64,000 nucleotides of DNA from Moorellales bacterium (GCA_049719955.1 JBNARC010000001.1:1887-65886), one strand, 5' to 3'. Positions 6,904 through 41,937 are shown, numbered from the stretch's first letter. The notes: generated by a model from the letters alone, not told the origin. Numbers and translations are program-made.

Positions 6904-8829
6904 ATGAATACCATGCGGGTAGTGATGGACGCACCCGGAGAAGTGGCCCTGCTTACCGGTAACGAGGCGGTGGCCCGAGGAGCCCTGGAGGCGGGGGTGC
7001 AGTACGCCACCTCCTATCCCGGTTCGCCCACGGCGGAGATCCTGGAGTGCATTGCCGCCGGGGCGGAAAAATTCGGGCTGTACGCCGAATGGTCGGTCAA
7101 CGAGAAGGTAGCCATGGAGGGCGCTGCTGCGGCCTCGTTTGCCGGTCTGCGCTCCATCACCATCATGAAGTGCGACGGTCTGAACGTAGCCTTCGATTTC
7201 TTGACCAGCTTCAGCATGGCCGGCTGCCGGGGAGGCATGGTTATCGTAGTAGGGGATGATCCCAGTGCTCACTCCAGCGCTAAAGAGGAAGACTCGCGTT
7301 ACCTGGGACGTATAGCCCACGTTCCGGTACTCGAACCAGCGGATAGCGGCGAGGCCAAAGAAATGGTGAAGCACGCTTTTGAGCTCTCGGAAGCCCTACG
7401 GCAGCCGGTGATGCTGCGGCTGGTCACCCGCGTGTGCCACGGGAGCGGCAATGCCATTCTGGGGGAGTTGGCGCCGCCGGGTAGAAGGGCTTACTTCCCT
7501 CCGGAGGAGAAGTTCTTCACCTGGATCGAGTTTCACCAGGTGCAGGAGGAAAAGCTGGCCCGCGCGGCGGAGCTGGCCGAGGCTTCTCCTTTCAACCGTT
7601 ATTGGGGCCCGATTGGGGCGCGGCTTTTGATCATCTGCGGCGGCCCCAGTTTCTACTACGCTCGGGAGGCGGTGGAGAAGCTTGGCCTGACCGAGGAAGC
7701 CGGTATCCTCAAGCTCGGAACCCTGTGGCCGCTGCCGGAAAAATTGATCCTTTCTCATCTGCGGGCGGCGGAAAAGGTGGTCTTTATCGAAGAGGTGGAG
7801 CCCTTCCTGGAGGAAAACATTAAAGCCCTGGCCGCCCAGTACTGGGAAGAGGTAGGCCCGCTGGCCTTCTACGGCCAGAAGTCGGGTCACGTGGCCGGAG
7901 CCAACGGCGTTGGCCTGGGAGAAATGAATCCGGAGCAGGTGCTTCGGGCACTGGCGGCCATTACGGGTAAGAGAGCGGCGCCGGCGGCCGGCGGACCGGC
8001 AGAATGGCCGGAGCCGGTACCCCGGGAGTTGGCTTTTTGCCCGGGGTGCCCGCACCGCACCTCTTTCTGGGCGGTCAAGGTGGCCCTAGAGCTAGACGGT
8101 CGCCAGGGAGTGGTGCTGGGAGACATCGGCTGCTACACCCTGGGTAAAGGCCGCACCGGTTATTACCTGTTGCAGACCCTGCACGCTATGGGCTCGGGTG
8201 TGGGTCTGGCCTGCGGGCTGGGGCAGCTCGGCCGCTTCGGCTTCACCCAGCCGGTGGTGGCCCTGGTAGGGGACTCCACCTTCTATCACGCCGTGGTGCC
8301 CGCTCTCATTAACGGTCAGTATAACCGGGCGGAATTCTTATGCGTGGTCCTGGATAACGAGGCCACGGCCATGACCGGACACCAGCCTCATCCCGGTTTG
8401 GGGATAGGGGCTATGGGCCAGCCCGCCAACAAGGTGGAGCTGGAGGCCCTGGTGCGGGGGGTGGGCATACCGGTATGGGTGGCCGACCCCTACCGGGTGG
8501 AGGATACGGTGCGTATGCTGGTGGAACTCTTGCGTCGGCCGGGGCCTAAGGTACTGGTCTTGCGCCGGGCCTGCGCCCTGGTGGCGGCCAAGAAGCGGGG
8601 ACCGGTAAGGGTATGGGTAGATCCGGAGCGCTGCCGGGGAGACGCCTGCGGTTGCGCCCGGTTTTGCAGCCGGGTTTTCGCCTGCCCGGCAAATATTTGG
8701 GACGAAGAACTGGGTCGGGCCCGCATAGACGAGGCCATCTGCAACGGGTGCGGGGTGTGCGCTACCCTTTGCCCGGCCGGTGCCATCCGGGTGGAAGGCG
8801 AGCCCTTGATGGCCACCCGGTCGGTTTAG
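6904..8829 (+). CDS. iorA: Indolepyruvate:ferredoxin oxidoreductase alpha subunit
   Basis: GNEAVARGALEAGVQYATSYPGSPT is a TPP-enzyme N-terminus and GDSTFYH is the TPP-binding region. The C-terminus has two cysteine clusters (CRGDACGCARFC...CP and CNGCGVCATLCP). Confidence 0.85.
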   Translation: MNTMRVVMDAPGEVALLTGNEAVARGALEAGVQYATSYPGSPTAEILECIAAGAEKFGLYAEWSVNEKVAMEGAAAASFAGLRSITIMKCDGLNVAFDFLTSFSMAGCRGGMVIVVGDDPSAHSSAKEEDSRYLGRIAHVPVLEPADSGEAKEMVKHAFELSEALRQPVMLRLVTRVCHGSGNAILGELAPPGRRAYFPPEEKFFTWIEFHQVQEEKLARAAELAEASPFNRYWGPIGARLLIICGGPSFYYAREAVEKLGLTEEAGILKLGTLWPLPEKLILSHLRAAEKVVFIEEVEPFLEENIKALAAQYWEEVGPLAFYGQKSGHVAGANGVGLGEMNPEQVLRALAAITGKRAAPAAGGPAEWPEPVPRELAFCPGCPHRTSFWAVKVALELDGRQGVVLGDIGCYTLGKGRTGYYLLQTLHAMGSGVGLACGLGQLGRFGFTQPVVALVGDSTFYHAVVPALINGQYNRAEFLCVVLDNEATAMTGHQPHPGLGIGAMGQPANKVELEALVRGVGIPVWVADPYRVEDTVRMLVELLRRPGPKVLVLRRACALVAAKKRGPVRVWVDPERCRGDACGCARFCSRVFACPANIWDEELGRARIDEAICNGCGVCATLCPAGAIRVEGEPLMATRSV

Positions 8830-16469: not shown

Positions 16470-17579
16470 TTATTTTTGCGCCGGTCGGGACCAGCCGGGC
16501 AGATAAAGGCGCGAACTTCCCAGTCGCACCTCGCCGGTCGGAGCGGCCCCTTGGGGCGCGAGGGCGCGTTCGGCCAGAAGGCGAAAGAAGGGGATAAAGG
16601 CGGGATTAGCCCCTTCGTTTAGGGCCCGGGCCAGAGCCAGTGCCCGGCGGGCTTGCAGGGGTCGGCCGGTTTTCCAGAAGAGGTAGGCCATTTCTTCCAG
16701 CCGGCGGCTAAAGACGGGACGAAACTCCGGGTGGAAGTACTGTTCCACCAGTTCTTGCTTGATCCGCTCGGCTATTTCTCGAGCGGTCACCGGGCTGATC
16801 ACCAGGGGGCTGGATTGTTGCTGACCGATCTTTTTCTTGGCCCCCTCTACTTCCGGCCCTTCCAAGACCCAAGAAGACATTTCCTTTTCCGTAAGTAGCT
16901 CGTCCGACCCGGCCAGCAAGATCGGCCGTTCGGCCTCGAGATCTTGCGGGGAGAGGTGGTGGTAGACGGGGCATTCGGGTAGGGGTAGCTCCGGCCCGAG
17001 GCTCGCGCGGTAGAGTTCGAAATCGCGGGGCACCGGGCGACCCTGCTGCCGGTTGATCCGGTAATAGTGGTGAAGCCAGGCCCGGCAATAGTCGGGGTCA
17101 ACCGGGATAAAGGTGAGCCCTTCCATTTCCCGGATGCGTTCCTTCAGGGCTTGGTACTCTCGCTTGTTGGGCGGCTCGTAGACTTCGGTCATGACCAGGC
17201 CCCCCCTATCCCCGCCGATAGCCAGCAGGATCACGTAGGGACTGGAAGGTCGGCGGTAGGCGTAAAACAGGAAGCGGTCGCCCCGGCGGTCAATCTGGCT
17301 GGCCATCGCCCCCAAGGGCCGGGACTCGGCCTTCAAAGCCCAAGCCTGACCCGGCGAGGCCTGCGGGACCGCCAGGCCTCGGCTGCGCCAGAGGTGCAAA
17401 ACCCGTCTGGCTTCCTTAGCCAGAGGCTTGGGCGCGGTTTCGGCTACCGTTTCCAGAACCCGAGCGGTGGCGGGGTCGGGAACCAGCGCGGGTAGAAGCT
17501 TGATTAGGGTTGCCGGCTCGGGGGACTCCTCCGGTCCCAAAAGACCCTGCCTCCTCAGTTCGGCAATTAGTTCCTCCAC
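16470..17579 (-). CDS. Hypothetical protein
   Basis: This 369-aa ORF has a protein-like composition. I recognise no motif. Confidence 0.5.
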   Translation of the reverse strand: MEELIAELRRQGLLGPEESPEPATLIKLLPALVPDPATARVLETVAETAPKPLAKEARRVLHLWRSRGLAVPQASPGQAWALKAESRPLGAMASQIDRRGDRFLFYAYRRPSSPYVILLAIGGDRGGLVMTEVYEPPNKREYQALKERIREMEGLTFIPVDPDYCRAWLHHYYRINRQQGRPVPRDFELYRASLGPELPLPECPVYHHLSPQDLEAERPILLAGSDELLTEKEMSSWVLEGPEVEGAKKKIGQQQSSPLVISPVTAREIAERIKQELVEQYFHPEFRPVFSRRLEEMAYLFWKTGRPLQARRALALARALNEGANPAFIPFFRLLAERALAPQGAAPTGEVRLGSSRLYLPGWSRPAQK

Positions 17580-17692
17580 CGGGTACCACTCCCGTTTTTC
17601 TTCCTGCGCCGGAGCCAGTATATCATAGCGCGCCGGTATTGGAAAAGAGGCAGGAGGATTAGAACAAAATTTGGCGAAGTTAACAGTAAATT

Positions 17693-17788
17693 CGATTTCG
17701 CCCAGGGCAAACCGGTCGAAAGGCCGGGACGCAAAGCTACGGGTCTAAGGCCTCATGTGGGGCTATGATCGCCGGGCTGCCGAAATCG
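17693..17788 (+). promoter_or_regulatory. c-di-GMP-I (GEMM-I) riboswitch aptamer
   Basis: CAGGGCAAACCGGUCGAAAGGCCGGGACGCAAAGCUACGGGUCUAAGGCC matches the conserved GEMM-I core as in Vibrio Vc2: AGGGCAAAC, a GAAA tetraloop hairpin, GACGCAAAGC and CGG..CUAA. The closing helix is CGATTTCG (17693-17700) paired with CGAAATCG (17781-17788). Confidence 0.85.
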
Positions 17789-17827
17789 CTCGAGTCGGCG
17801 GCCGATCCGGAACCAGGAGGGAAGGCC

Positions 17828-19735
17828 ATGCCGGAAGAAGTGGTGGTGGAAGCCGGTAGTTTGGAGGAGGCGCGATCCCGGGCGGCCGCCGCGCTGGGAT
17901 GTCCGGCCGAGGCGCTGGAACTGGAGGTTCTGAGTGAGGCCAGGGGCGGGCGCTGGTCACGGGCGCGGATAAGGGTGCGGGCCCGCCTGGCGGATGACCA
18001 ACTGGACGGACGCGTAGCAATAAAAGACGGAGTGGTGGTGGTGATCGACCCCCGACCGGGAGGCCGGCCGGCGGTGCTGGGGTGCGGGCCCCACCTAAGG
18101 ATGTGGGTTAACGAGGTTCCGGTAAGCGAGCCTCGGCCGGTTACAAGCAGCGATCAGGTACGGCTGGAAGCCGAGACCGTGGAAGCGCTGAGCACGGTAG
18201 AGGTCGAGGTAACGCCGGACAAGATGAGTTGCCTGCTTCGGGTTAGGCGCCAGCCCCGCGAGGTTTACGCCGTGGAGGACGCCGAGCCCGCCAACCACCT
18301 GATCGTAAAGGCCCGCCTAATAGAAAGTTCTCTCCCCCCTTTGAGCGAGGAAGAAGTACTGGCGAAAATCGCCGCCGCGGGCGTGGTGTGGGGTTTAGAT
18401 CGGGAGGCGGTACGGCAGGCCCTGGAGCGGGGGGACGGCGAACCGGTAGTGGTGGCCCGGGGGACTCCGCCGCAACCGCCGGTGGACGCCCGGGTGGAGT
18501 ACCTTTTCTTGGCCAAGCTGGAAGAGTTCGAGCACCGGGCTCCGGGCCTGCGACGGGTTTTCGCCGTGGAACCGGGGGAAATCCTGGCGGTGAAGAAACC
18601 GGGTATTCCCGGCTCGCCCGGCAAGGACGTGTTCGGTCGGGTGCTGGAACCCCCACCTCCCCGGGACGCGCCCCTGCGAGCGGGCAACGGAACCCGCCTG
18701 CGGGAGGACGGCCTGGCGGTGGTGGCTACGGCGGTGGGGCGACCGGAGCGGCGCGGTAGCCTGGTCACCGTGGTGCCGGTGTACGTAATCGCCGGTGACG
18801 CCGATCCCCGGGGCGGGCCCATCAAGTTCAAGGGGGACATAGTAGTAGGGGGCGACGTGCTGGACGGCACGGTGATAGAGGCCGGAGGTAACGTGCGGGT
18901 GAAGGGGCTGGTGGCCAATAGCCACCTCAGCGCGGGGGGGAGTATTACGGTAGAAGGGAACGTGGTGGGCTCTAAGCTCAAGGCCGGGGGCCTGGCTCTG
19001 GTGTGGGAGAAGTGGTGGACGTTTTGGCAGGAAACGGGGGATTCCGTCCGGGAGTTGCTAAGCGCCCTGGCGCAGCTTCGGGAGCAGTGGGAGCGCACCA
19101 GGGCTGAGGAAGGGCCCCGTATCGCCGACGGCGCGCTGATCAAGGTGCTTCTGGAAACGCGCTTTCGTCGCTTACCCCACCAACTAGAGGACTGCCGGGC
19201 GGCGGCCGAAGAGTTGGCGGAAGCGGTAGGGCTTGAGGCCGAGCATCCCTTCCGGGAGCACTTGACCTACCTGCACCGGTGCCTGGCCGCGCAGGGGTAC
19301 ATGACCTTGGGTAGCGCCCAAGAGCTGGCGCGGCGATTTGAGGCGGCTCAGGAAGAGGCCCGGGCGCTGGAGGAAATGGCGCAGGCGGCCAGCAGGAACG
19401 CCAACATCACCGCCTCTTACGTTCAGAATTCGGTCCTGGAGACTACAGGGCAGGTGCTGGTGAGCGGTAAGGGATGCTACAACTGCTCGGTCTACGCCGG
19501 CAGCGGTGTGGTCATCGGCGGGGTGCCCGGAGCTTTTAGGGGCGGGCAGATAATCAGCAAGGGAAACGTGCGCGTGCAGCAGTTGGGCAGCCCGGCCGAG
19601 GTGAGAACCTATGTCCAGGTGCCCAAGCACTGCCACATCCGGGCGACGGAGGCCTACCCGGGGGTAATGCTGAAGGCCGGCAGCCGGATCGAGAAGGTGA
19701 CCGCCCGCATGGCAGTCAATCTTTTGGGGGAATAG
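17828..19735 (+). CDS. FapA/DUF342 family protein (flagellar-assembly-protein-A-like, beta-helical repeats)
   Basis: It has C-terminal repeats of the type GDIVVGGDVLDGTVIEAGGNVRVKGLVANSHLSAGGSITVEGNVVGSKLKAGG and a second block GSGVVIGG...GNVRVQQLG. ATG 17828 is preceded by AGGAGGGA. The track start at 17765 would lie inside the riboswitch. Confidence 0.7.
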   Translation: MPEEVVVEAGSLEEARSRAAAALGCPAEALELEVLSEARGGRWSRARIRVRARLADDQLDGRVAIKDGVVVVIDPRPGGRPAVLGCGPHLRMWVNEVPVSEPRPVTSSDQVRLEAETVEALSTVEVEVTPDKMSCLLRVRRQPREVYAVEDAEPANHLIVKARLIESSLPPLSEEEVLAKIAAAGVVWGLDREAVRQALERGDGEPVVVARGTPPQPPVDARVEYLFLAKLEEFEHRAPGLRRVFAVEPGEILAVKKPGIPGSPGKDVFGRVLEPPPPRDAPLRAGNGTRLREDGLAVVATAVGRPERRGSLVTVVPVYVIAGDADPRGGPIKFKGDIVVGGDVLDGTVIEAGGNVRVKGLVANSHLSAGGSITVEGNVVGSKLKAGGLALVWEKWWTFWQETGDSVRELLSALAQLREQWERTRAEEGPRIADGALIKVLLETRFRRLPHQLEDCRAAAEELAEAVGLEAEHPFREHLTYLHRCLAAQGYMTLGSAQELARRFEAAQEEARALEEMAQAASRNANITASYVQNSVLETTGQVLVSGKGCYNCSVYAGSGVVIGGVPGAFRGGQIISKGNVRVQQLGSPAEVRTYVQVPKHCHIRATEAYPGVMLKAGSRIEKVTARMAVNLLGE

Positions 19736-19795: not shown

Positions 19796-20284
19796 TTGAT
19801 GGAGGCCAACCAGGTTAAGTCGGCGGCCGAGCGCCAGCTTGTGGCCTTTGAGCTGGCCGGAGAGACCTACGGCGTGGATATTAACTGGGTGCACGAGATA
19901 ATTCGCATGCAGACGGTAACCCGGCTGCCCCGGACCCCTGAGTTTATCGAGGGGGTTATCAACCTGCGGGGACGGATCATACCGGTAATCGATTTGCGCA
20001 AGCGCTTCCACCTGCCGCCGCGGGAGCAGACGCCGGACACCCGAATTATGGTAGTAGAGATGGCCGGGGTAACGGTGGGGATGATTGTGGATGCGGTATC
20101 CGAGGTGGTTCGGTTACCGGCGGACAGCATCGAGCCCCCTCCGCCGATGATGCACGGCATAGACACCGCCTATCTAGAGGGAGTGGGCAAGTGGCAGGAC
20201 CGGTTGATAATCCTACTCAATCTGGATCGGGTCCTGCGCCAGGGCGAGCAGGAGCAGCTTGCCGAGACGACTCAGGCCCTGTAG
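19796..20284 (+). CDS. cheW: Chemotaxis coupling protein CheW
   Basis: The segment LVAFELAGETYGVDINWVHEIIRMQTVTRLPRTPEFIEGVINLRGRIIPVIDLRKRF is CheW-like. Confidence 0.9.
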   Translation: MMEANQVKSAAERQLVAFELAGETYGVDINWVHEIIRMQTVTRLPRTPEFIEGVINLRGRIIPVIDLRKRFHLPPREQTPDTRIMVVEMAGVTVGMIVDAVSEVVRLPADSIEPPPPMMHGIDTAYLEGVGKWQDRLIILLNLDRVLRQGEQEQLAETTQAL

Positions 20285-20309
20285 GCGGCAGGAAACGGAG
20301 GTGGCGGCG

Positions 20310-22346
20310 TTGGCCGACATGAGCCAGTATCTAAGTCTGTTCTTGGAGGAAACGGAGGAGCAGTTACGGCTACTGGATCAGAACCTGGTGCTGTTAGAAC
20401 AGCACCCGGAGGACCTGGAGATCCTGAATAACATTTTTCGCGCCGCCCACACGGTCAAGGGAGCGGCGGCCTCCATGGGGTTTGAGCGCCTGGCCGGGCT
20501 CACCCACGCCATGGAAGAAGTGTTAGACAAGCTGCGGCAGGGGCAGTTGGTCGTTACCAGCCGGGTGGTGGATGTGCTTTTAGCCTGCCTGGACGCTCTC
20601 CGGGAACTGAAGGAGGAGGCGGCCGGTGGAGGGGAACGGCCGGTAGAAGTGGAGGCGCTGGTGCGCCGGCTTCGCTCCCTGGTGGGAGCGGCCGAGGCGG
20701 AGCCGGCGAGTAAAGCCCCCGCCAAGCCCGGGCCGGAACTGGTTCTCAACGAGGTGGAACGGCACCTGGTGGAAACCGCCTACCTTAAAGGCTTTCGTGT
20801 GTGGCACCTGGTGGTCACCCTGGAAGAGGGTTGTTTGATGAAGGCGGCCCGGGCTTACATCGTCTATAAGAACCTCGAGGAAATAGGAGAGATTATCAAG
20901 ACCGTACCCTCCACCGAGGACATTGAGGCGGAGAAGTTCGACCGCACCCTGCACTTCGTCTTGGTCACCCGGGAAGACGCCGACGTGGTGGCCAGCGTGG
21001 TAAAGTCCACTTCGGAAATAGCCGCGGTGGAAGTAGGGGCCGTTTCGGTGGAGGCGGCCGAGCCCGCTCCGGTTTCGGCCGGGCCGGCGCGGGCGGAAAA
21101 AGAGGCGGCAGCCCCCAGGCGGGCGGAGGAGGCGCGGGCCGGTCAGACCGTCCGGGTGGACGTGCAGCGGCTGGACAACCTTATGAACCTGGTAGGCGAG
21201 TTGGTTATCGACCGCACCCGTCTGGCCGAGGTGGAGGCTTCCCTACGGGGTGAGTTGGGCAACAGTTCCCTCATAGAGACCCTAGAGGAAATATCGGTAC
21301 ATATCGGGCGGGTCACGGGGGAACTGCAGGAAGAAATAATGAAAGCGCGCATGTTCCCGGTGGAGCAGGTATTCAGCCGCTTCCCCCGCATGGTAAGGGA
21401 TCTGGCCCAGAAGGCGGGCAAGGAGGTCAACTTCGTAATCGAGGGCCAGGAGACGGAGTTGGACCGAACCGTGATCGAAGAGATCGGGGACCCGCTCATT
21501 CACCTCCTGCGCAACGCCATTGACCATGGCATTGAGCTTCCGGAAGAGCGGGAGCGGTTGGGCAAGCCCCGGCGGGGCACGGTGGAGCTTAGGGCGTTCC
21601 ATCAAGAGAACCAGATCGTGATCACGGTACGCGACGACGGCCGGGGCATGGATGTAGAGACCATTCGGGAGCGGGCCGTGGCCCGGGGCCTGGTCAGCCC
21701 GGACCAAGCGGCGCGGATGAGCGAGCGCGAGATCCTAAACCTTATTTTCCTGCCCGGATTCTCTACGGCGGAGACGGTTACCGACGTGTCCGGACGGGGG
21801 GTGGGCATGGATATAGTGCGCAATCACCTGGAGCGCATAAACGGGACCATCGATATTACTACCCGTCCGGGCAAAGGGACCACCTTCACCATCAAGCTGC
21901 CCCTTACCCTGGCCATTAACCGCTCCCTGCTGGTGCGGGTGGGCGAGCTGATTTTGGCCTTCCCGCTGGCCAACGTGGTGGAGATTCTGGAGGTGCCGGC
22001 CGCGGAAGTGCAGCACGTGCACCGGCAGCCGGTGGTGGTGGTGAGGGGAGAGGTGTTGCCGCTTTTCTCTCTGGCGGCGGTACTGGGGCTGGATGCCGGA
22101 TCCGTTCTGGAGCGGCCGCAGTTGGCAGTGGTGGTAGTGGCCCTCTCCGAAAGGCGGCTCGGCTTTGTGGTGGACGAGTTGATAGGAGAGCAGGAGATCG
22201 TGATCAAATCCTTGGGCCGCTACGTGGGTAGCATTCCCGGTTTGGCCGGCGCCACCATTATGGGCGACGGTAGCGTGGCCCTGATTCTGGACGTGCGGGG
22301 TCTTTTGGTTCAAGCCGCGGCCGGTTCCGGGATGGTGGCGGTGTGA
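20310..22346 (+). CDS. cheA: Chemotaxis histidine kinase CheA
   Basis: The HPt domain has HTVKGAAASMGF, the HATPase domain has DDGRGMD and GRGVGMDIV, and there is a C-terminal CheW-like domain. The start is TTG 20310 (8 nt after GGAGG) or ATG 20319. Confidence 0.9.
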   Translation: MADMSQYLSLFLEETEEQLRLLDQNLVLLEQHPEDLEILNNIFRAAHTVKGAAASMGFERLAGLTHAMEEVLDKLRQGQLVVTSRVVDVLLACLDALRELKEEAAGGGERPVEVEALVRRLRSLVGAAEAEPASKAPAKPGPELVLNEVERHLVETAYLKGFRVWHLVVTLEEGCLMKAARAYIVYKNLEEIGEIIKTVPSTEDIEAEKFDRTLHFVLVTREDADVVASVVKSTSEIAAVEVGAVSVEAAEPAPVSAGPARAEKEAAAPRRAEEARAGQTVRVDVQRLDNLMNLVGELVIDRTRLAEVEASLRGELGNSSLIETLEEISVHIGRVTGELQEEIMKARMFPVEQVFSRFPRMVRDLAQKAGKEVNFVIEGQETELDRTVIEEIGDPLIHLLRNAIDHGIELPEERERLGKPRRGTVELRAFHQENQIVITVRDDGRGMDVETIRERAVARGLVSPDQAARMSEREILNLIFLPGFSTAETVTDVSGRGVGMDIVRNHLERINGTIDITTRPGKGTTFTIKLPLTLAINRSLLVRVGELILAFPLANVVEILEVPAAEVQHVHRQPVVVVRGEVLPLFSLAAVLGLDAGSVLERPQLAVVVVALSERRLGFVVDELIGEQEIVIKSLGRYVGSIPGLAGATIMGDGSVALILDVRGLLVQAAAGSGMVAV

Positions 22347-22930
22347 TCCGGGTGGTGGGGATTGCCGCCTCCACCGGCGGCCCCGCGGCCCTACAGAAGA
22401 TAATTCCCCGGCTGCCGGCGGGGTTTCCGGCAGCCGTTCTTGTAGTCCAGCACATGCCCGCGGGCTTCACCCGGTCGTTGGCGGAGCGGCTGGCCAGCTT
22501 GAGCGCTTTGCCGGTGCGGGAGGCTAGCGAGGGAGAGCGGGTGGCCGGCGGGGAGGTGCTGGTAGCCCCGGCTGCGCGGCAGATGTGGGTGGTGAGGGAA
22601 GAGGGCGGCGTAAAGGTACGGCTGGGAGAGGAAGGCCCGTTAAAGAGCATTTACCGGCCCTCGGCGGACGTGCTCTTTACCAGTCTGGCCGAGGTTTACG
22701 GGCCAGAGGTGCTGGCGGTGGTCCTGACCGGCATGGGTAAAGACGGCCTGGTGGGGCTGGCGCGGGTAAAAGAGAAAGGAGGCCAGGTTCTGGCGCAGGA
22801 TCGTTCCAGTTCGGTGGTCTACGGAATGTCCCGGGCGGCGGTGGACGCCGGCCTGGCGGACGCCGTGGTAGCCCTGGAAGAAATGGCCGCGGTCATAGTG
22901 TCCCGGGTGCTAAAGAATCTCCGCTTCTGA
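22343..22930 (+). CDS. cheB: CheB-type glutamate methylesterase, catalytic domain only (no receiver domain)
   Basis: The protein begins directly with VGIAASTGGPAAL, followed by VVQHMPAGFT and LTGMGKDGLVGL. At 195 aa it has no room for a REC domain. The start overlaps the cheA stop as GTGA. Confidence 0.8.
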   Translation: MIRVVGIAASTGGPAALQKIIPRLPAGFPAAVLVVQHMPAGFTRSLAERLASLSALPVREASEGERVAGGEVLVAPAARQMWVVREEGGVKVRLGEEGPLKSIYRPSADVLFTSLAEVYGPEVLAVVLTGMGKDGLVGLARVKEKGGQVLAQDRSSSVVYGMSRAAVDAGLADAVVALEEMAAVIVSRVLKNLRF

Positions 22931-22937
22931 CCGATAA
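22911..22937 (+). promoter_or_regulatory. Sigma-28 (FliA/SigD)-type promoter upstream of flgM
   Basis: The sequence TAAAGAAT-N11-ACCGATAA (equivalently TAAA-N15-aCCGATAA) matches the consensus TAAAGTTT-N11-GCCGATAA. It lies in the last codons of cheB, 26 nt upstream of the flgM start. Confidence 0.6.
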
Positions 22938-38285: not shown

Positions 38286-38312
38286 TAAAGTCGGGGCGGG
38301 TGGGGCCGATAA
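38286..38312 (+). promoter_or_regulatory. Sigma-28 (FliA/SigD)-type promoter upstream of flaG-fliD-fliS
   Basis: The sequence TAAAGTCG-N11-GCCGATAA (equivalently TAAA-N15-GCCGATAA) matches the consensus essentially perfectly. It lies 13 nt upstream of the flaG start candidate. Confidence 0.65.
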
Positions 38313-38324
38313 CCTATATTAGAG

Positions 38325-38714
38325 TTGTACGGCGTCGAGGGGGTAGGGGTCTTGAAGGTAGAAGGCGTGGATCAGGTGGTATTGGAGCGGATTCGGGCTC
38401 GGGCGGAGCAGGTGGAAGTTACCCAGACCCGGGACCTGCGCATTCGCAGCGAGGAGCAGCAGGAACAGGAGCGCCGCCACGCCCAGGAGCCTCAGGAGCA
38501 ACTGCGCCAGGCGGTTCGGCAGCTCAACGAGGCGAGCGATCTCTTCAACATCCGGCTGCGCTTCAAGCTGGACCAGGAAACCGGCGAGATTTACGTGCTG
38601 GTGATCGACCGGGAAAAGGGAGAGATAATTCGCCGCATACCGCCGGAGAAAGTGCTGGAGATGGCCTACCGCATGCAGCACATGATCGGCCTCTTGTTGG
38701 ACGAGCTGGTTTAG
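38325..38714 (+). CDS. flaG: Flagellar protein FlaG
   Basis: The C-terminal segment LRFKLDQETGEIYVLVIDREKGEIIRRIPPEKVLEMAYRM is FlaG-like. The start is TTG 38325 or TTG 38352. Confidence 0.75.
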   Translation: MYGVEGVGVLKVEGVDQVVLERIRARAEQVEVTQTRDLRIRSEEQQEQERRHAQEPQEQLRQAVRQLNEASDLFNIRLRFKLDQETGEIYVLVIDREKGEIIRRIPPEKVLEMAYRMQHMIGLLLDELV

Positions 38715-38732: not shown

Positions 38733-40676
38733 ATGCCCACCATGACCATAAGCGGTCTGGCCTCGGGCCTGGATACGGAAGAGATTATAAAGCAGCTCTT
38801 GGAGTTGGAGCGCACTCCGGTAACGCGGCTGGAGAAGCGCAAGTCGGAACTGACGGTGGTCAAGAATGCCTGGAAGGATTTAGGTACCCGACTTCAAAGC
38901 CTTCTTAGTACCCTTACCGCCCTAAAACTGGAGTCTACCTTTAAGGCCCGTACCGTTACCTCCTCCAACAGCAACGCCGTTACCGCCACGGCTTCGGCTA
39001 CCGCTTCCGCGGGCATCTACCGGGTGTGGGTGGGCCAACTGGCGCAGGCCCACAAGGTGGCCACCCCGCAACCTAGAGTTTACGGTACCCCCCAGAGTCT
39101 GATTTCCTGGGACGGGTTTGATGATCCCGTCCGCACCGATTCGTACTCCAGCCTCAATCAATTGACCTTCCTGGGAACTGAGGATAAGGCCCTTCAGATA
39201 TCCGGGTCAAGCCTTTCCGGCTCCATTGAGACCGACCCGATTGGCTTTGATGCCCCTCAAGGCGGTCGCTTCACCCTTACCGCCACCCACACCCGCACGC
39301 TCAACGTGCGGTTTCGCTACGAATATCAGTATTACCGCACCGATACCGGCGCTTGGAGCGGCTGGGTCCCCTTCGCGGGATCCCCCTTCACCTACTCCAC
39401 CGGCGGCGGTTCGGACACCGTGACCGTTTCCGCGGAGATTCCCTACCCGGTCAGCCAGGTACGGGTTAGAGCGGTGTTAGAGAGGACTGACACCCAGGTT
39501 ATCCCCTTACTTCTGGGTTGGTCCTTGCAAGGAGAGGCGGCCGGGCCGGTTGCCGACGCCTCCACTGCTTTGGGCCTTTCCGGCCGGTTTTCTATCACCG
39601 TGGGAAGCGAGGCGGTGGAGGTTCAGGTGGAGAGCCATTATAGCCTTAACGACATCAAGAATGCCATCAACGCCGCTACCGTGCAGGGCAAAACCCTAGT
39701 TACGGCGAGCGTGATTGACAATCGTCTGGTGATCACCAGTAACACCGTCGGCGCCGCCGGACGGATGCGGTTCGAGGATCTGGAGGGCAGCGTGCTGCAA
39801 ACCCTTGGTCTGATCGACCCGGGGGGGAACCTGGCCGAAGGGGCAGAGATCCAGGCGGCGCAGGACGCGGTTTTATGGCTGGACGGCCTAAGGGTGACTC
39901 GGAGCGGCAACGTGATAAACGACGTGTTGCCCGGGGTGACCCTTAACCTGCTGGCGGTTACCGATACCAACGGCAACTCCCAGCGGGATCCGGCCGAAGA
40001 GGTGGCGCTGGAAGTAAAGACCAATCAGCAAGCGGCGGTAGAGGCGGTAAGGGGGTTCGTGGAGCAGTACAACTCGGTGATGGACTTCATCGCCTCCAAA
40101 CTAGGCAAGACCGCCACCGGCGAGCCGGGAGACCTTTTCGGTGACCCCACCCTGGCCCGCATCCAACAGAGTCTACGGGAGCTGGTCTTCCGAAAAGTGG
40201 ATATCACCGGTACCCCGTACACCAGCGCCGGCACCGTGGGCCTCAGTACCGGGGCCTACTATACCGGATCCCTCGGTTTTGACCGGAGCGGCAAGCTCAC
40301 TCTGGACGAGGCCAAGCTGGCCCGGGCCCTGGAGGAGGACCCTAACGGGGTTTATCAGCTTTTCGCCTCTTCCGGCGGACTGGCCCGGCGGCTGGAAGAT
40401 TACCTGAAGCAGTTGACCCGCCTGGGTGCCGGGACCAACCCGGCGGTGGGCGAGGGGGTAATCGGCACCAAGCAGAAGATGCTAGATCTCACCCTCAAGG
40501 ACATAGACAACCAGATCGCCCGCTGGGAGGACCGGCTGGCCCGGCGGGAGGAACAGTTGCGGCGGCAGTTTACGGCCATGGAAGCCATGTTGGGTAATCT
40601 GCAGAGCCAGGCCAACTGGCTTGCCGGGCAGATTACGTCATTACAGAACCTGAGTTCGCAGTCGAGGAACCGGTAA
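38733..40676 (+). CDS. fliD: Flagellar filament cap protein FliD (hook-associated protein 2), with an enlarged central region
   Basis: The N-terminus ISGLASGLDTEEIIKQLLELERTPVTRLEKRKSELTVVKNAWKDL is FliD-like, and the C-terminus has a coiled coil (IARWEDRLARREEQLRRQFTAMEAMLGNLQSQANWL). Confidence 0.85.
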   Translation: MPTMTISGLASGLDTEEIIKQLLELERTPVTRLEKRKSELTVVKNAWKDLGTRLQSLLSTLTALKLESTFKARTVTSSNSNAVTATASATASAGIYRVWVGQLAQAHKVATPQPRVYGTPQSLISWDGFDDPVRTDSYSSLNQLTFLGTEDKALQISGSSLSGSIETDPIGFDAPQGGRFTLTATHTRTLNVRFRYEYQYYRTDTGAWSGWVPFAGSPFTYSTGGGSDTVTVSAEIPYPVSQVRVRAVLERTDTQVIPLLLGWSLQGEAAGPVADASTALGLSGRFSITVGSEAVEVQVESHYSLNDIKNAINAATVQGKTLVTASVIDNRLVITSNTVGAAGRMRFEDLEGSVLQTLGLIDPGGNLAEGAEIQAAQDAVLWLDGLRVTRSGNVINDVLPGVTLNLLAVTDTNGNSQRDPAEEVALEVKTNQQAAVEAVRGFVEQYNSVMDFIASKLGKTATGEPGDLFGDPTLARIQQSLRELVFRKVDITGTPYTSAGTVGLSTGAYYTGSLGFDRSGKLTLDEAKLARALEEDPNGVYQLFASSGGLARRLEDYLKQLTRLGAGTNPAVGEGVIGTKQKMLDLTLKDIDNQIARWEDRLARREEQLRRQFTAMEAMLGNLQSQANWLAGQITSLQNLSSQSRNR

Positions 40677-40754: not shown

Positions 40755-41174
40755 ATGTATGCTCAGCAGGCCTATCAGGCTTATCAGGAGAACCAGGTTC
40801 AGACCCAGCCTCAGGAGAAGCTGGTGCTAATGCTTTATGAGGGAGCTCTGCGTTTTATAAAGCAGGCCCAGGAAGCGGTGGCGGCCAAGAAGTACGACCA
40901 GACCAGTTATTTCCTGGGCCGGGCGCAGGACATATTGAGCGAGTTGATGCTTACCCTCAACCTGGAAGTAGGGGAAATTGCCCACCGTCTTTACGCCCTG
41001 TACGACTTTATGTACCGACACTTGGTGCAGGCCAACCTAAGGAAGGATCCGCAGATGATGGCCGAGGTCTACCGGCTGTTGAGCGAGCTGCGCGACACCT
41101 GGGAGGAGGCCACGCGGCGCCACCACAGCCACAATTACCTTACCCGTCCTGGCGGCCTGGAGGGCCACAGCTAA
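40755..41174 (+). CDS. fliS: Flagellin-specific chaperone FliS
   Basis: The sequence AYQENQVQTQPQEKLVLMLYEGALRFIKQA...GEIAHRLYALYDFMYRHLVQAN is typical of FliS. Confidence 0.9.
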   Translation: MYAQQAYQAYQENQVQTQPQEKLVLMLYEGALRFIKQAQEAVAAKKYDQTSYFLGRAQDILSELMLTLNLEVGEIAHRLYALYDFMYRHLVQANLRKDPQMMAEVYRLLSELRDTWEEATRRHHSHNYLTRPGGLEGHS

Positions 41175-41785: not shown

Positions 41786-41886
41786 GGCATTCACCGCTAA
41801 GGGCAAACTGCTCGAAAGGGCAGGGCGCAAAGCTTCGGGTCTAAGGCCCCTGCGGGGCTAAGACTGCCGGGTTGCCGGGGAATGGC
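41786..41886 (+). promoter_or_regulatory. c-di-GMP-I (GEMM-I) riboswitch aptamer upstream of the flgB operon
   Basis: UAAGGGCAAACUGCUCGAAAGGGCAGGGCGCAAAGCUUCGGGUCUAAGGCCCCUGCGGGGCUAAG shares the same conserved core as the copy at 17693. The P1-like pairing is CATTC.CCG (41888-41896) with CGG.GAATG (41876-41884). Confidence 0.8.
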
Positions 41887-41893
41887 GTAAGGT

Positions 41894-41925
41894 CCTACCA
41901 TGCCCGGCGGTAGGTCTTATTTATT
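41894..41925 (+). terminator. Candidate intrinsic terminator / expression platform of the flgB riboswitch
   Basis: A short hairpin CCTACC-ATGCCCGGC-GGTAGG is followed by TCTTATTTATT and sits just before the flgB RBS GGAGGG. The stem is only 6 bp, so this is tentative. Confidence 0.4.
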
Positions 41926-41937
41926 GGAGGGACAGGC

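Follow-up and report, generated by a model that had tools for sequence, protein, structure and literature searches.

A complete c-di-GMP-I (GEMM) aptamer, including its outer helix P1, is located at 17693-17788 on the plus strand of a 64,000-nucleotide (nt) stretch of the genome of a Moorellales bacterium (GCA_049719955.1, JBNARC010000001.1:1887-65886; below, the window, with positions counted from its first letter). It lies on the same strand as a gene block for the DUF342 protein FapA and the chemotaxis proteins CheW, CheA and CheB, with 39 nt between the end of P1 and the fapA ATG (17828). The element is a canonical type 1 GEMM aptamer, with cyclic di-guanosine monophosphate (c-di-GMP) as its predicted ligand, and it very probably regulates fapA-cheW-cheA-cheB in cis. 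The best explanation of the data as a whole is an OFF riboswitch on this block that is read out at translation, to which we assign a probability of about 0.5. In related leaders the same aptamer is followed by an intrinsic terminator, which the lineage of the window appears to have lost. Coordinates of the features discussed are collected in Table 1.

The whole window was scanned with Rfam models (cmscan) at gathering thresholds, the best model per clan being kept, and two elements of the c-di-GMP clan were found, at 17697-17785 and 41792-41879. The top model for the first was RF03167 (c-di-GMP-I-GGC), with 72.8 bits, E=2.4e-15 and a gathering score of 59. To bypass the competition within the clan, the core (17703-17782) was re-scanned alone with the P1 strands removed; positions 17704-17782 then matched RF01051, the canonical c-di-GMP-I family, with 71.5 bits (E=5.9e-15, gathering score 35) and posterior probabilities near 1. 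The fold consists of two adjacent hairpins, the first with a GNRA tetraloop, and a conserved internal-loop core; the receptor bases of the P2 helix fit the CUAAgg...cuAuGa columns of RF01051 with high posterior probability, which is a type 1 GEMM trait. The canonical assignment follows from the presence of bases equivalent to G20, A47 and C92, which we take to be G17706, A17733 and C17780 in the numbering of the Vc2 structure. An earlier note on this DNA, made from the sequence alone, had proposed a c-di-GMP-I riboswitch at this place; both covariance-model scores and the canonical contact bases agree with that call, the score on the core passes the check with the Rfam c-di-GMP-I model that the note had suggested, and every sequence feature that it named is present at its position. 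The G at the position-20 equivalent, which it had read as selectivity for c-di-GMP rather than cyclic GMP-AMP, fits as well, and points to c-di-GMP as the ligand.

Conservation of the aptamer among relatives is the main argument that it is in use. A protein search with FapA yielded five clusters of orthologues with 63-77% identity (L004/L005, L006, L007, L008/L009 and L010/L011) and two paralogues with 33-37% identity, and the respective contigs were scanned with Rfam. The aptamer directly precedes fapA in all five orthologue clusters. The Rfam scan found no aptamer upstream of the DUF342 gene in the paralogue loci L012 and L013, and no riboswitch was found at two distant DUF342 loci retrieved by the FapA search of genome contigs (L001 from Desulfamplus and L002 from Turneriella). 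Across six related aptamers, compensatory changes were observed in 14 of the 29 predicted pairs, both in P1 and in the inner helices. Seven of the eight P1 pairs show such changes (one is A-U in the window and G-C in L010), and the eighth is an invariant G-C pair. Compared with L004, the closest relative, the window is 93% identical in the aptamer, 58% in the linker between aptamer and start codon, 65% in the upstream spacer and 53% at third positions of conserved fapA codons, and the seven differences within the aptamer all map to the junction, the distal loop or a single receptor base. With 93% identity in the aptamer against 53-65% at neutral sites, the comparison argues clearly for purifying selection on an aptamer that is still in use in this terminator-less lineage.

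The relatives also indicate how the leader family operates. In L006, L007, L008 and L010, P1 is followed at a distance of 5-6 nt by a strong hairpin of the form (U)GCCUUUUCG...AAAAGGC(A) with a tail of six U. As this terminator lies outside the aptamer and shares no sequence with it, folding of the aptamer does not preclude termination. The 3' strand of the aptamer, CUGCCGAAA, is complementary to the 5' strand and loop of the orthologues' terminator, and in folding models this pairing would be an antiterminator; in L006 and L007 the partner, UUUCG(CC)GCAG, gives about -11 kcal/mol at a stage when the 3' strand of the terminator is not yet made. The presence of both a terminator and a putative antiterminator makes this an OFF-switch architecture, in which a ligand-stabilized P1 would let the independent terminator form.

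Between the aptamer and the ATG of the window (17789-17827), neither reading of the sequence nor a terminator scan revealed a hairpin followed by a U-tract, as the earlier note had remarked; the scan of the window returned 9 sites, no excess over the 7.2 +/- 3.0 found in shuffled sequence. The terminator of a Cdi-1-3-type OFF riboswitch (see below) is thus present in L006, L007, L008 and L010 and absent from the window. In the alignment of the post-aptamer regions, a terminator block of ~46 nt is missing from the window and L004, and the flanking segments are still alignable. A neighbour-joining protein tree rooted with the paralogues places L008 at the base and the window with L004 as the sister group of L010 and (L006, L007). 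As one loss is more parsimonious than two gains, the alignment and the tree indicate that the lineage of the window has lost a terminator that its relatives keep. With the terminator kept in four leaders and lost in two, and the aptamer conserved, the family presents a clean natural case of expression-platform turnover.

A candidate for the replacement platform was found in the 39-nt linker, where two islands are conserved in L004, CGGCGGCCG and the Shine-Dalgarno (SD) sequence. In the minimum-free-energy fold of 17767-17840, the strand UCGGCGGCC pairs with the aptamer 3' side GGCUGCCGA over 9 base pairs (bp); L004 has an 8-bp equivalent. Once the aptamer strand is blocked, UCGGCGGCC pairs with GGCC (17824-17827) and GCCGG (17830-17834), and a second contact forms between UCC (17806-17808) and GGA (17820-22), at the 3' end of the SD. 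The leader energies are -51.8 kcal/mol with the native aptamer enforced and -57.6 kcal/mol with the anti-aptamer helix enforced; the ligand-free fold is favoured by ~6 kcal/mol, a gap that ligand binding could plausibly overcome at the affinities known for c-di-GMP-I aptamers. In 2000 dinucleotide shuffles of the linker, the p-values for the window were ~0.04 for the pairing with the aptamer, ~0.08 for the pairing with the ribosome-binding region and 0.005 for both jointly; in L004 the pairing with the aptamer is kept (p 0.06). Unconstrained minimum-free-energy folds of long leaders were discarded as uninformative, the aptamer pairing with coding sequence in them.

These folds suggest the following scheme. 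Without ligand, UCGGCGGCC (17795-17803) would pair with the aptamer 3' side (17775-17783), leaving the SD and the AUG in an open loop. With ligand bound, P1 and P2 would hold the aptamer 3' side and free UCGGCGGCC, which would pair with the GGCC and GCCGG segments flanking the AUG, while UCC would pair with the 3' end of the SD. The resulting decrease in fapA translation would, by polarity, presumably lower the expression of cheW-cheA-cheB. The sign of the response, with high c-di-GMP lowering expression of motility and chemotaxis genes, is rather likely to be correct; the translational mechanism as drawn is more tentative, a little short of an even chance. Action on translation had been offered in the earlier note as a possibility, and we retain it as the best guess with the same caution. 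A further step is more doubtful: translational occlusion may have replaced intrinsic termination as the read-out, through deletion of the terminator and re-use of a pre-existing downstream strand, CGGCGG/CGGCAG, so that c-di-GMP would gate DUF342/FapA together with CheW-CheA-CheB at the RNA level. If so, this gating would run parallel to that by a second riboswitch on the flgB operon (see below), and DUF342 proteins would belong to a c-di-GMP motility circuit, consistent with the c-di-GMP phosphodiesterase (EAL-domain) gene that precedes the DUF342 paralogue in L012.

Several observations weigh against the translational scheme. Each of the two complementarities alone barely beats the shuffles (p 0.04 and 0.08) in a GC-rich leader. 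The second, that between linker and ribosome-binding region, does no better than chance in L004 (p 0.59), so the sequestering half of the model is not conserved. According to the partition function, the modelled accessibility of the SD is nearly equal in the two states (0.69 vs 0.64), and the stretch from the SD to the AUG shifts only modestly (0.44 vs 0.58). The terminator-less leaders are two in number and their switch strands are identical, hence they show no covariation, and the neighbour-joining tree carries no support values.

A metagenome scan with the aptamer 3' motif GAYCGCCGGGCTGCCGAAAYC returned 41 loci and no further relative of this leader; most of these loci are coding sequence or unrelated GEMM aptamers in front of other genes. 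In many unrelated metagenome contigs (L014, L021, L023, L037, L039, L046, L049 and others), the 21-nt aptamer 3' motif GATCGCCGGGCTGCCGAAACC is part of a conserved gene, in which it encodes the C-terminal end (...CKIAGLPKPTGC*). Given such coding copies, short aptamer motifs alone are poor probes.

Among other explanations, the one that survives best, while still unlikely, is a functional aptamer that acts on the synthesis or stability of the RNA without a canonical terminator, for instance if Rho terminated transcription early in fapA, if pausing depended on the ligand or if the access of RNases were altered. It would account for clear purifying selection on the aptamer together with an SD whose modelled accessibility hardly differs between states and a ribosome-binding-site pairing that is at chance in L004, and the ancestral mechanism of the leader family is transcriptional. 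On the other hand, no hairpin with a U-tract is present, no more than 39 nt of G-rich leader follow P1, probably a poor loading site for Rho, and a structural switch near the ribosome-binding site accounts better for the conserved strand with its two partners.

The element could also be a relic that folds, and may bind its ligand, but has exerted no control over expression since the terminator was lost. The absence of the terminator in both the window and L004 and the weak thermodynamic evidence for a replacement platform are in line with this, but at a divergence that left 53% identity at fapA third codon positions and 58-65% in the flanking leader, a neutral remnant should have decayed. Instead, the aptamer is 93% identical, its seven differences are confined to the junction, the distal loop and one receptor base, and the linker island CGGCGGCCG is conserved too, which makes a relic improbable.

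Slightly less probable again is an ON switch, in which c-di-GMP raises fapA-che expression. Such a response has a precedent in Cdi-1-1 of C. difficile, where downstream expression rises with c-di-GMP (PMC6200980), and the modelled differences in accessibility are small enough to leave their sign insecure. The direction is nevertheless opposed by the four orthologous leaders, in which the terminator does not overlap the aptamer and a folded aptamer permits termination, and by the window itself, in which the flanks of the AUG are paired in the aptamer-folded state. Repression of motility genes by c-di-GMP is also the general pattern, as established knowledge and the C. difficile work (PMC6200980) agree.

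Finally, the possibility that the element is a c-di-GMP-I-GGC riboswitch (RF03167) or a c-AMP-GMP sensor, with a ligand other than c-di-GMP, is very remote, in spite of the top match to RF03167 above its gathering score (72.8 bits against 59). Comparison of the consensus lines of the two Rfam families gave two differences. The core consensus is GACGCAAAgC in RF01051 and GACGCGAAgC in RF03167; the window has A at 17733, within GACGCAAAGC, and, together with all orthologues, reads GCGCAAAG or GACGCAAAG without the diagnostic G of RF03167 (GACGCGAAG). The tetraloop-receptor part of P2 falls in matched columns of RF01051 and is a low-confidence insertion for RF03167, whose short P2 lacks the receptor motif that the window keeps. 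What the window shares with the variant is the overall fold and the modelled outer P1 helix. RF03167 appears to outscore RF01051 only because it models this outer helix, which the 8-bp P1 satisfies: without the P1 flanks RF01051 scores 71.5 bits, and orthologues truncated on the 5' side by the contig border come out as RF01051 with 71-72 bits. Going by the two consensus lines, we take 'GGC' to denote the bases at positions 20, 47 and 92. The variant label was rejected on the A at 17733, the presence of the receptor and the core re-scan favouring RF01051; the 'c-di-GMP-I' name in the earlier note is thus right, even though the top Rfam model is the GGC variant. A at position 20 is the diagnostic base of c-AMP-GMP (GEMM-Ib) riboswitches, whereas the equivalent base here is G17706. 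The c-AMP-GMP class has been described (PMC7266159). As a practical caution, clan competition in Rfam attaches the name of the GGC variant to an aptamer that is canonical, and to its orthologues as well.

The genes assigned to the riboswitch are well defined. The FapA/DUF342-cheW-cheA-cheB block reported in the earlier note was confirmed with Pfam, and the same aptamer stands before every orthologous fapA that was found. The fapA product is identical to the NCBI entry 'MAG: DUF342 domain-containing protein [Moorellales bacterium]', and the alignment of orthologues shows a conserved N-terminus from the ATG at 17828 on. An in-frame ATG at 17765, inside P2, at which an open-reading-frame finder starts a protein of 656 amino acids (aa), was rejected: it has no SD, and both conservation and the database gene call place the start at 17828. 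The SD lies 26 nt downstream of P1, where the earlier note had put it. The cheB gene overlaps the stop codon of cheA by 4 nt. Its product is devoid of the usual N-terminal receiver domain, as is that in L004 (193 aa). A perfect 10-bp GC-rich hairpin, CGGCTGCCGG...CCGGCAGCCG (22409-22436, both strands), occurs ~66 nt inside cheB; it is terminator-like with a weak T-tail. Plasmid megablast of the locus gave no match.

Genes for FlgM, FlgN, FlgK and a flagellin-like FlgL (Pfam) follow cheB, and the order fapA-cheW-cheA-cheB-flgM is the same in L004. The earlier note had let the controlled block run on into flgM. The fapA-cheWAB part of that claim holds; the extension is weakened by a canonical sigma-28-type promoter that reaches back into the last codons of cheB, immediately ahead of flgM, and is kept in the closest relative (L004/L005, 9105-9131). 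As the flgM block has a promoter of its own, flgM-flgN-flgK-flgL need not depend on the riboswitch. The unit dependent on it is most likely fapA-cheW-cheA-cheB, and the promoter at 22911-22937 is likely the downstream limit of exclusive riboswitch control. In other orthologous loci, which bear the terminator, a HAMP-MCPsignal gene directly follows fapA (L006 2071-3873, L007 2062-3855, L010 5279-7087 and L011 3123-4931); in L010 and L011 this methyl-accepting chemotaxis protein gene is followed by cheW and cheA, and it is absent at this spot in the window, L004 and L008.

Table 1. Sequence features of the window around the aptamer and its gene block, with the late flagellar genes (positions from the first letter of the window).
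Feature	Position	Strand	Basis or remark
Divergent gene, 369 aa, faint Y4lR_C match	16470-17579	-	
Extended -10 TGATATACT (17617-17625) and TTTCCA -35	17617-17645	-	serving the divergent gene
Conserved bipartite block GCAGGAGGATTAGAACAAAATTTGGCGAAGTT, GGAWTW-N12-KCGAARW	17650-17681	+	window, L004, L008, L010
P1 5' strand CGATTTCG (= CGAUUUCG)	17693-17700	+	perfect 8-bp complement of 17781-17788
Core motif AGGGCAAAC	17704-17712	+	
Internal-loop core GGCAAAC	17706-17712	+	
G20-equivalent ligand-contact base, G	17706	+	alignment to Rfam consensus
Hairpin CCGGUC-GAAA-GGCCGG (GAAA tetraloop 17718-17721)	17712-17727	+	
Core motif GACGCAAAGC	17728-17737	+	
Internal-loop core ACGCAAAGC	17729-17737	+	core together with GGCAAAC
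A47-equivalent base, A	17733	+	alignment to Rfam consensus
Segment CGGGTCTAAGG (RNA form CGGGUCUAAGG)	17740-17750	+	
Distal part of P2 with tetraloop-receptor-like UCUAAG (17744-17749) and UAUGA (17764-17768)	17744-17768	+	
Aptamer 3' side GGCUGCCGA	17775-17783	+	base of P2, C92 junction and first three bases of P1 3' strand
C92-equivalent junction base, unpaired C between P2 and P1	17780	+	RF03167 and RF01051 alignments
P1 3' strand CGAAATCG (= CGAAAUCG)	17781-17788	+	
Proposed switch strand UCGGCGGCC	17795-17803	+	folding; two mutually exclusive 9-bp partners
Shine-Dalgarno AGGAGG	17815-17820	+	starts 26 nt after P1; GGAGG kept in all orthologous leaders
GGCC-AU-GCCGG around the start codon (17828-17830)	17824-17834	+	fold with aptamer blocked
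fapA/DUF342, 635 aa, Jag_N + FapA_N + FapA	17828-19735	+	Pfam
cheW	19796-20284	+	Pfam CheW, 145.8 bits
cheA, Hpt + P2 + dimerisation + HATPase + CheW domains	20259-22346	+	Pfam; gene call of the source record starts at 20319
cheB, methylesterase domain only, 195 aa	22343-22930	+	Pfam CheB_methylest, 212 bits
Sigma-28-type promoter TAAAGAATCTCCGCTTCTGACCGATAA, TAAA-N15-CCGATAA	22911-22937	+	pattern match
flaG	38325-38714	+	3' of second sigma-28-type promoter
fliD	38733-40676	+	3' of second sigma-28-type promoter
fliS	40755-41174	+	3' of second sigma-28-type promoter

The second element of the window, at 41792-41879 on the plus strand, is a c-di-GMP-I aptamer scored as RF01051 with 80.9 bits. 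Downstream of it come a hairpin, AGGTCCTACC...GGTAGGTCTT (41892-41931), with a T-rich tail and, from 41938, flgB-flgC-fliE-fliF (rod proteins, FliE and FliF by Pfam). The window of 64 kb thus holds two riboswitch-headed motility units, flgB-flgC-fliE-fliF and fapA-cheW-cheA-cheB. The only other copy of the sigma-28-type motif in the window, TAAAGTCGGGGCGGGTGGGGCCGATAA (38286-38313, plus strand), precedes flaG-fliD-fliS, which are late flagellar genes. Sigma-28-type promoters on late genes (the flgM block and flaG-fliD-fliS), combined with riboswitches on the other two units, make up a testable regulatory hierarchy.

Vc2 of Vibrio cholerae, a type 1 GEMM element that regulates tfoY, is the structural reference for c-di-GMP-I. 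Its sequence has the same CAGGGCAAACC and GACGCAAAGC cores as the window, a GAAA tetraloop with its receptor, G20, A47 and C92, and a short distance to the coding region; the two differ in host phylum and regulated gene, and their expression platforms are unrelated in sequence. The experimentally characterized Cdi-1-3 (Cd1) of C. difficile terminates the flgB transcript upon c-di-GMP binding (PMC6200980). It shares with the fapA element the aptamer class, a Firmicute host, a position in the leader of a motility operon and, as proposed here, the OFF logic. Its direct analogues are the second aptamer of the window and the terminator-bearing fapA leaders; the element at 17693, by contrast, has no terminator, ends 39 nt from the start codon and precedes fapA/DUF342-cheW-cheA-cheB rather than an early flagellar operon.

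Table 2 of Weinberg et al. (2007; PMC1950547) lists GEMM motifs, with more than one instance, before cheW, cheY, genes for methyl-accepting chemotaxis proteins and many flagellar genes. The same motif thus stands 5' of chemotaxis regulator genes there and here, with the difference that the first gene of the present unit is DUF342/FapA and the unit holds the whole CheW-CheA-CheB core. The open-access literature searched contained no report combining DUF342, c-di-GMP and a riboswitch; co-mentions of FapA, riboswitch and c-di-GMP led to work on Shewanella PdeB-HubP, in which FapA is named once. Of the novelty claimed in the earlier note for FapA/che genes, the che part is therefore anticipated by the 2007 table, and the part concerning DUF342/FapA as the first gene stands within that literature. 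DUF342/FapA as the first gene behind a riboswitch appears to be a new association in an expected functional category. The locus adds a well-supported c-di-GMP-I riboswitch to the genome of an uncultured member of the Moorellales; it is an ordinary new case of a well-known class, its one unusual trait being the terminator loss, and the link to DUF342/FapA, a minor new gene association, leaves the understanding of this class unchanged. What lends the locus modest additional interest is that a loss of the terminator is documented and that the Rfam variant label misleads.

Upstream of the aptamer, the conserved block at 17650-17681 has a fixed internal spacing of 12 nt in four leaders, and its distance to P1 varies. 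The segment GGCGAAGUU (17673-17681) is complementary to the region of the P1 5' strand GAUUUCGCC (17694-17702), with which it forms a hairpin in the minimum-free-energy fold. From its sequence, the block could be a promoter element of an unrecognized type or a 5' competitor of P1. Assignment to sigma-28 or sigma-54 was rejected, as the block fits neither the sigma-28 motif of the window nor, judged by eye, sigma-54 spacing. No convincing sigma-70-type promoter was found on the plus strand in 17580-17692; the sole match to the sigma-70-type consensus in this interval is the TGnTATACT of the divergent gene on the minus strand. The AGTATA core of this divergent promoter is kept in all four full-length orthologous intergenic regions.

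In the paralogue locus L012 (266-3733, plus strand), a gene for a DUF342/FapA paralogue (33% identity) begins 15 nt after the EAL-domain gene, an adjacency that is an independent genomic link of DUF342 to c-di-GMP. A separate RF01051 aptamer (75 bits) lies on the same contig, at 7618-7707 on the minus strand, and precedes small unannotated open reading frames and a cluster of GAF-SpoIIE, anti-sigma-factor (HATPase_c_2) and STAS genes.

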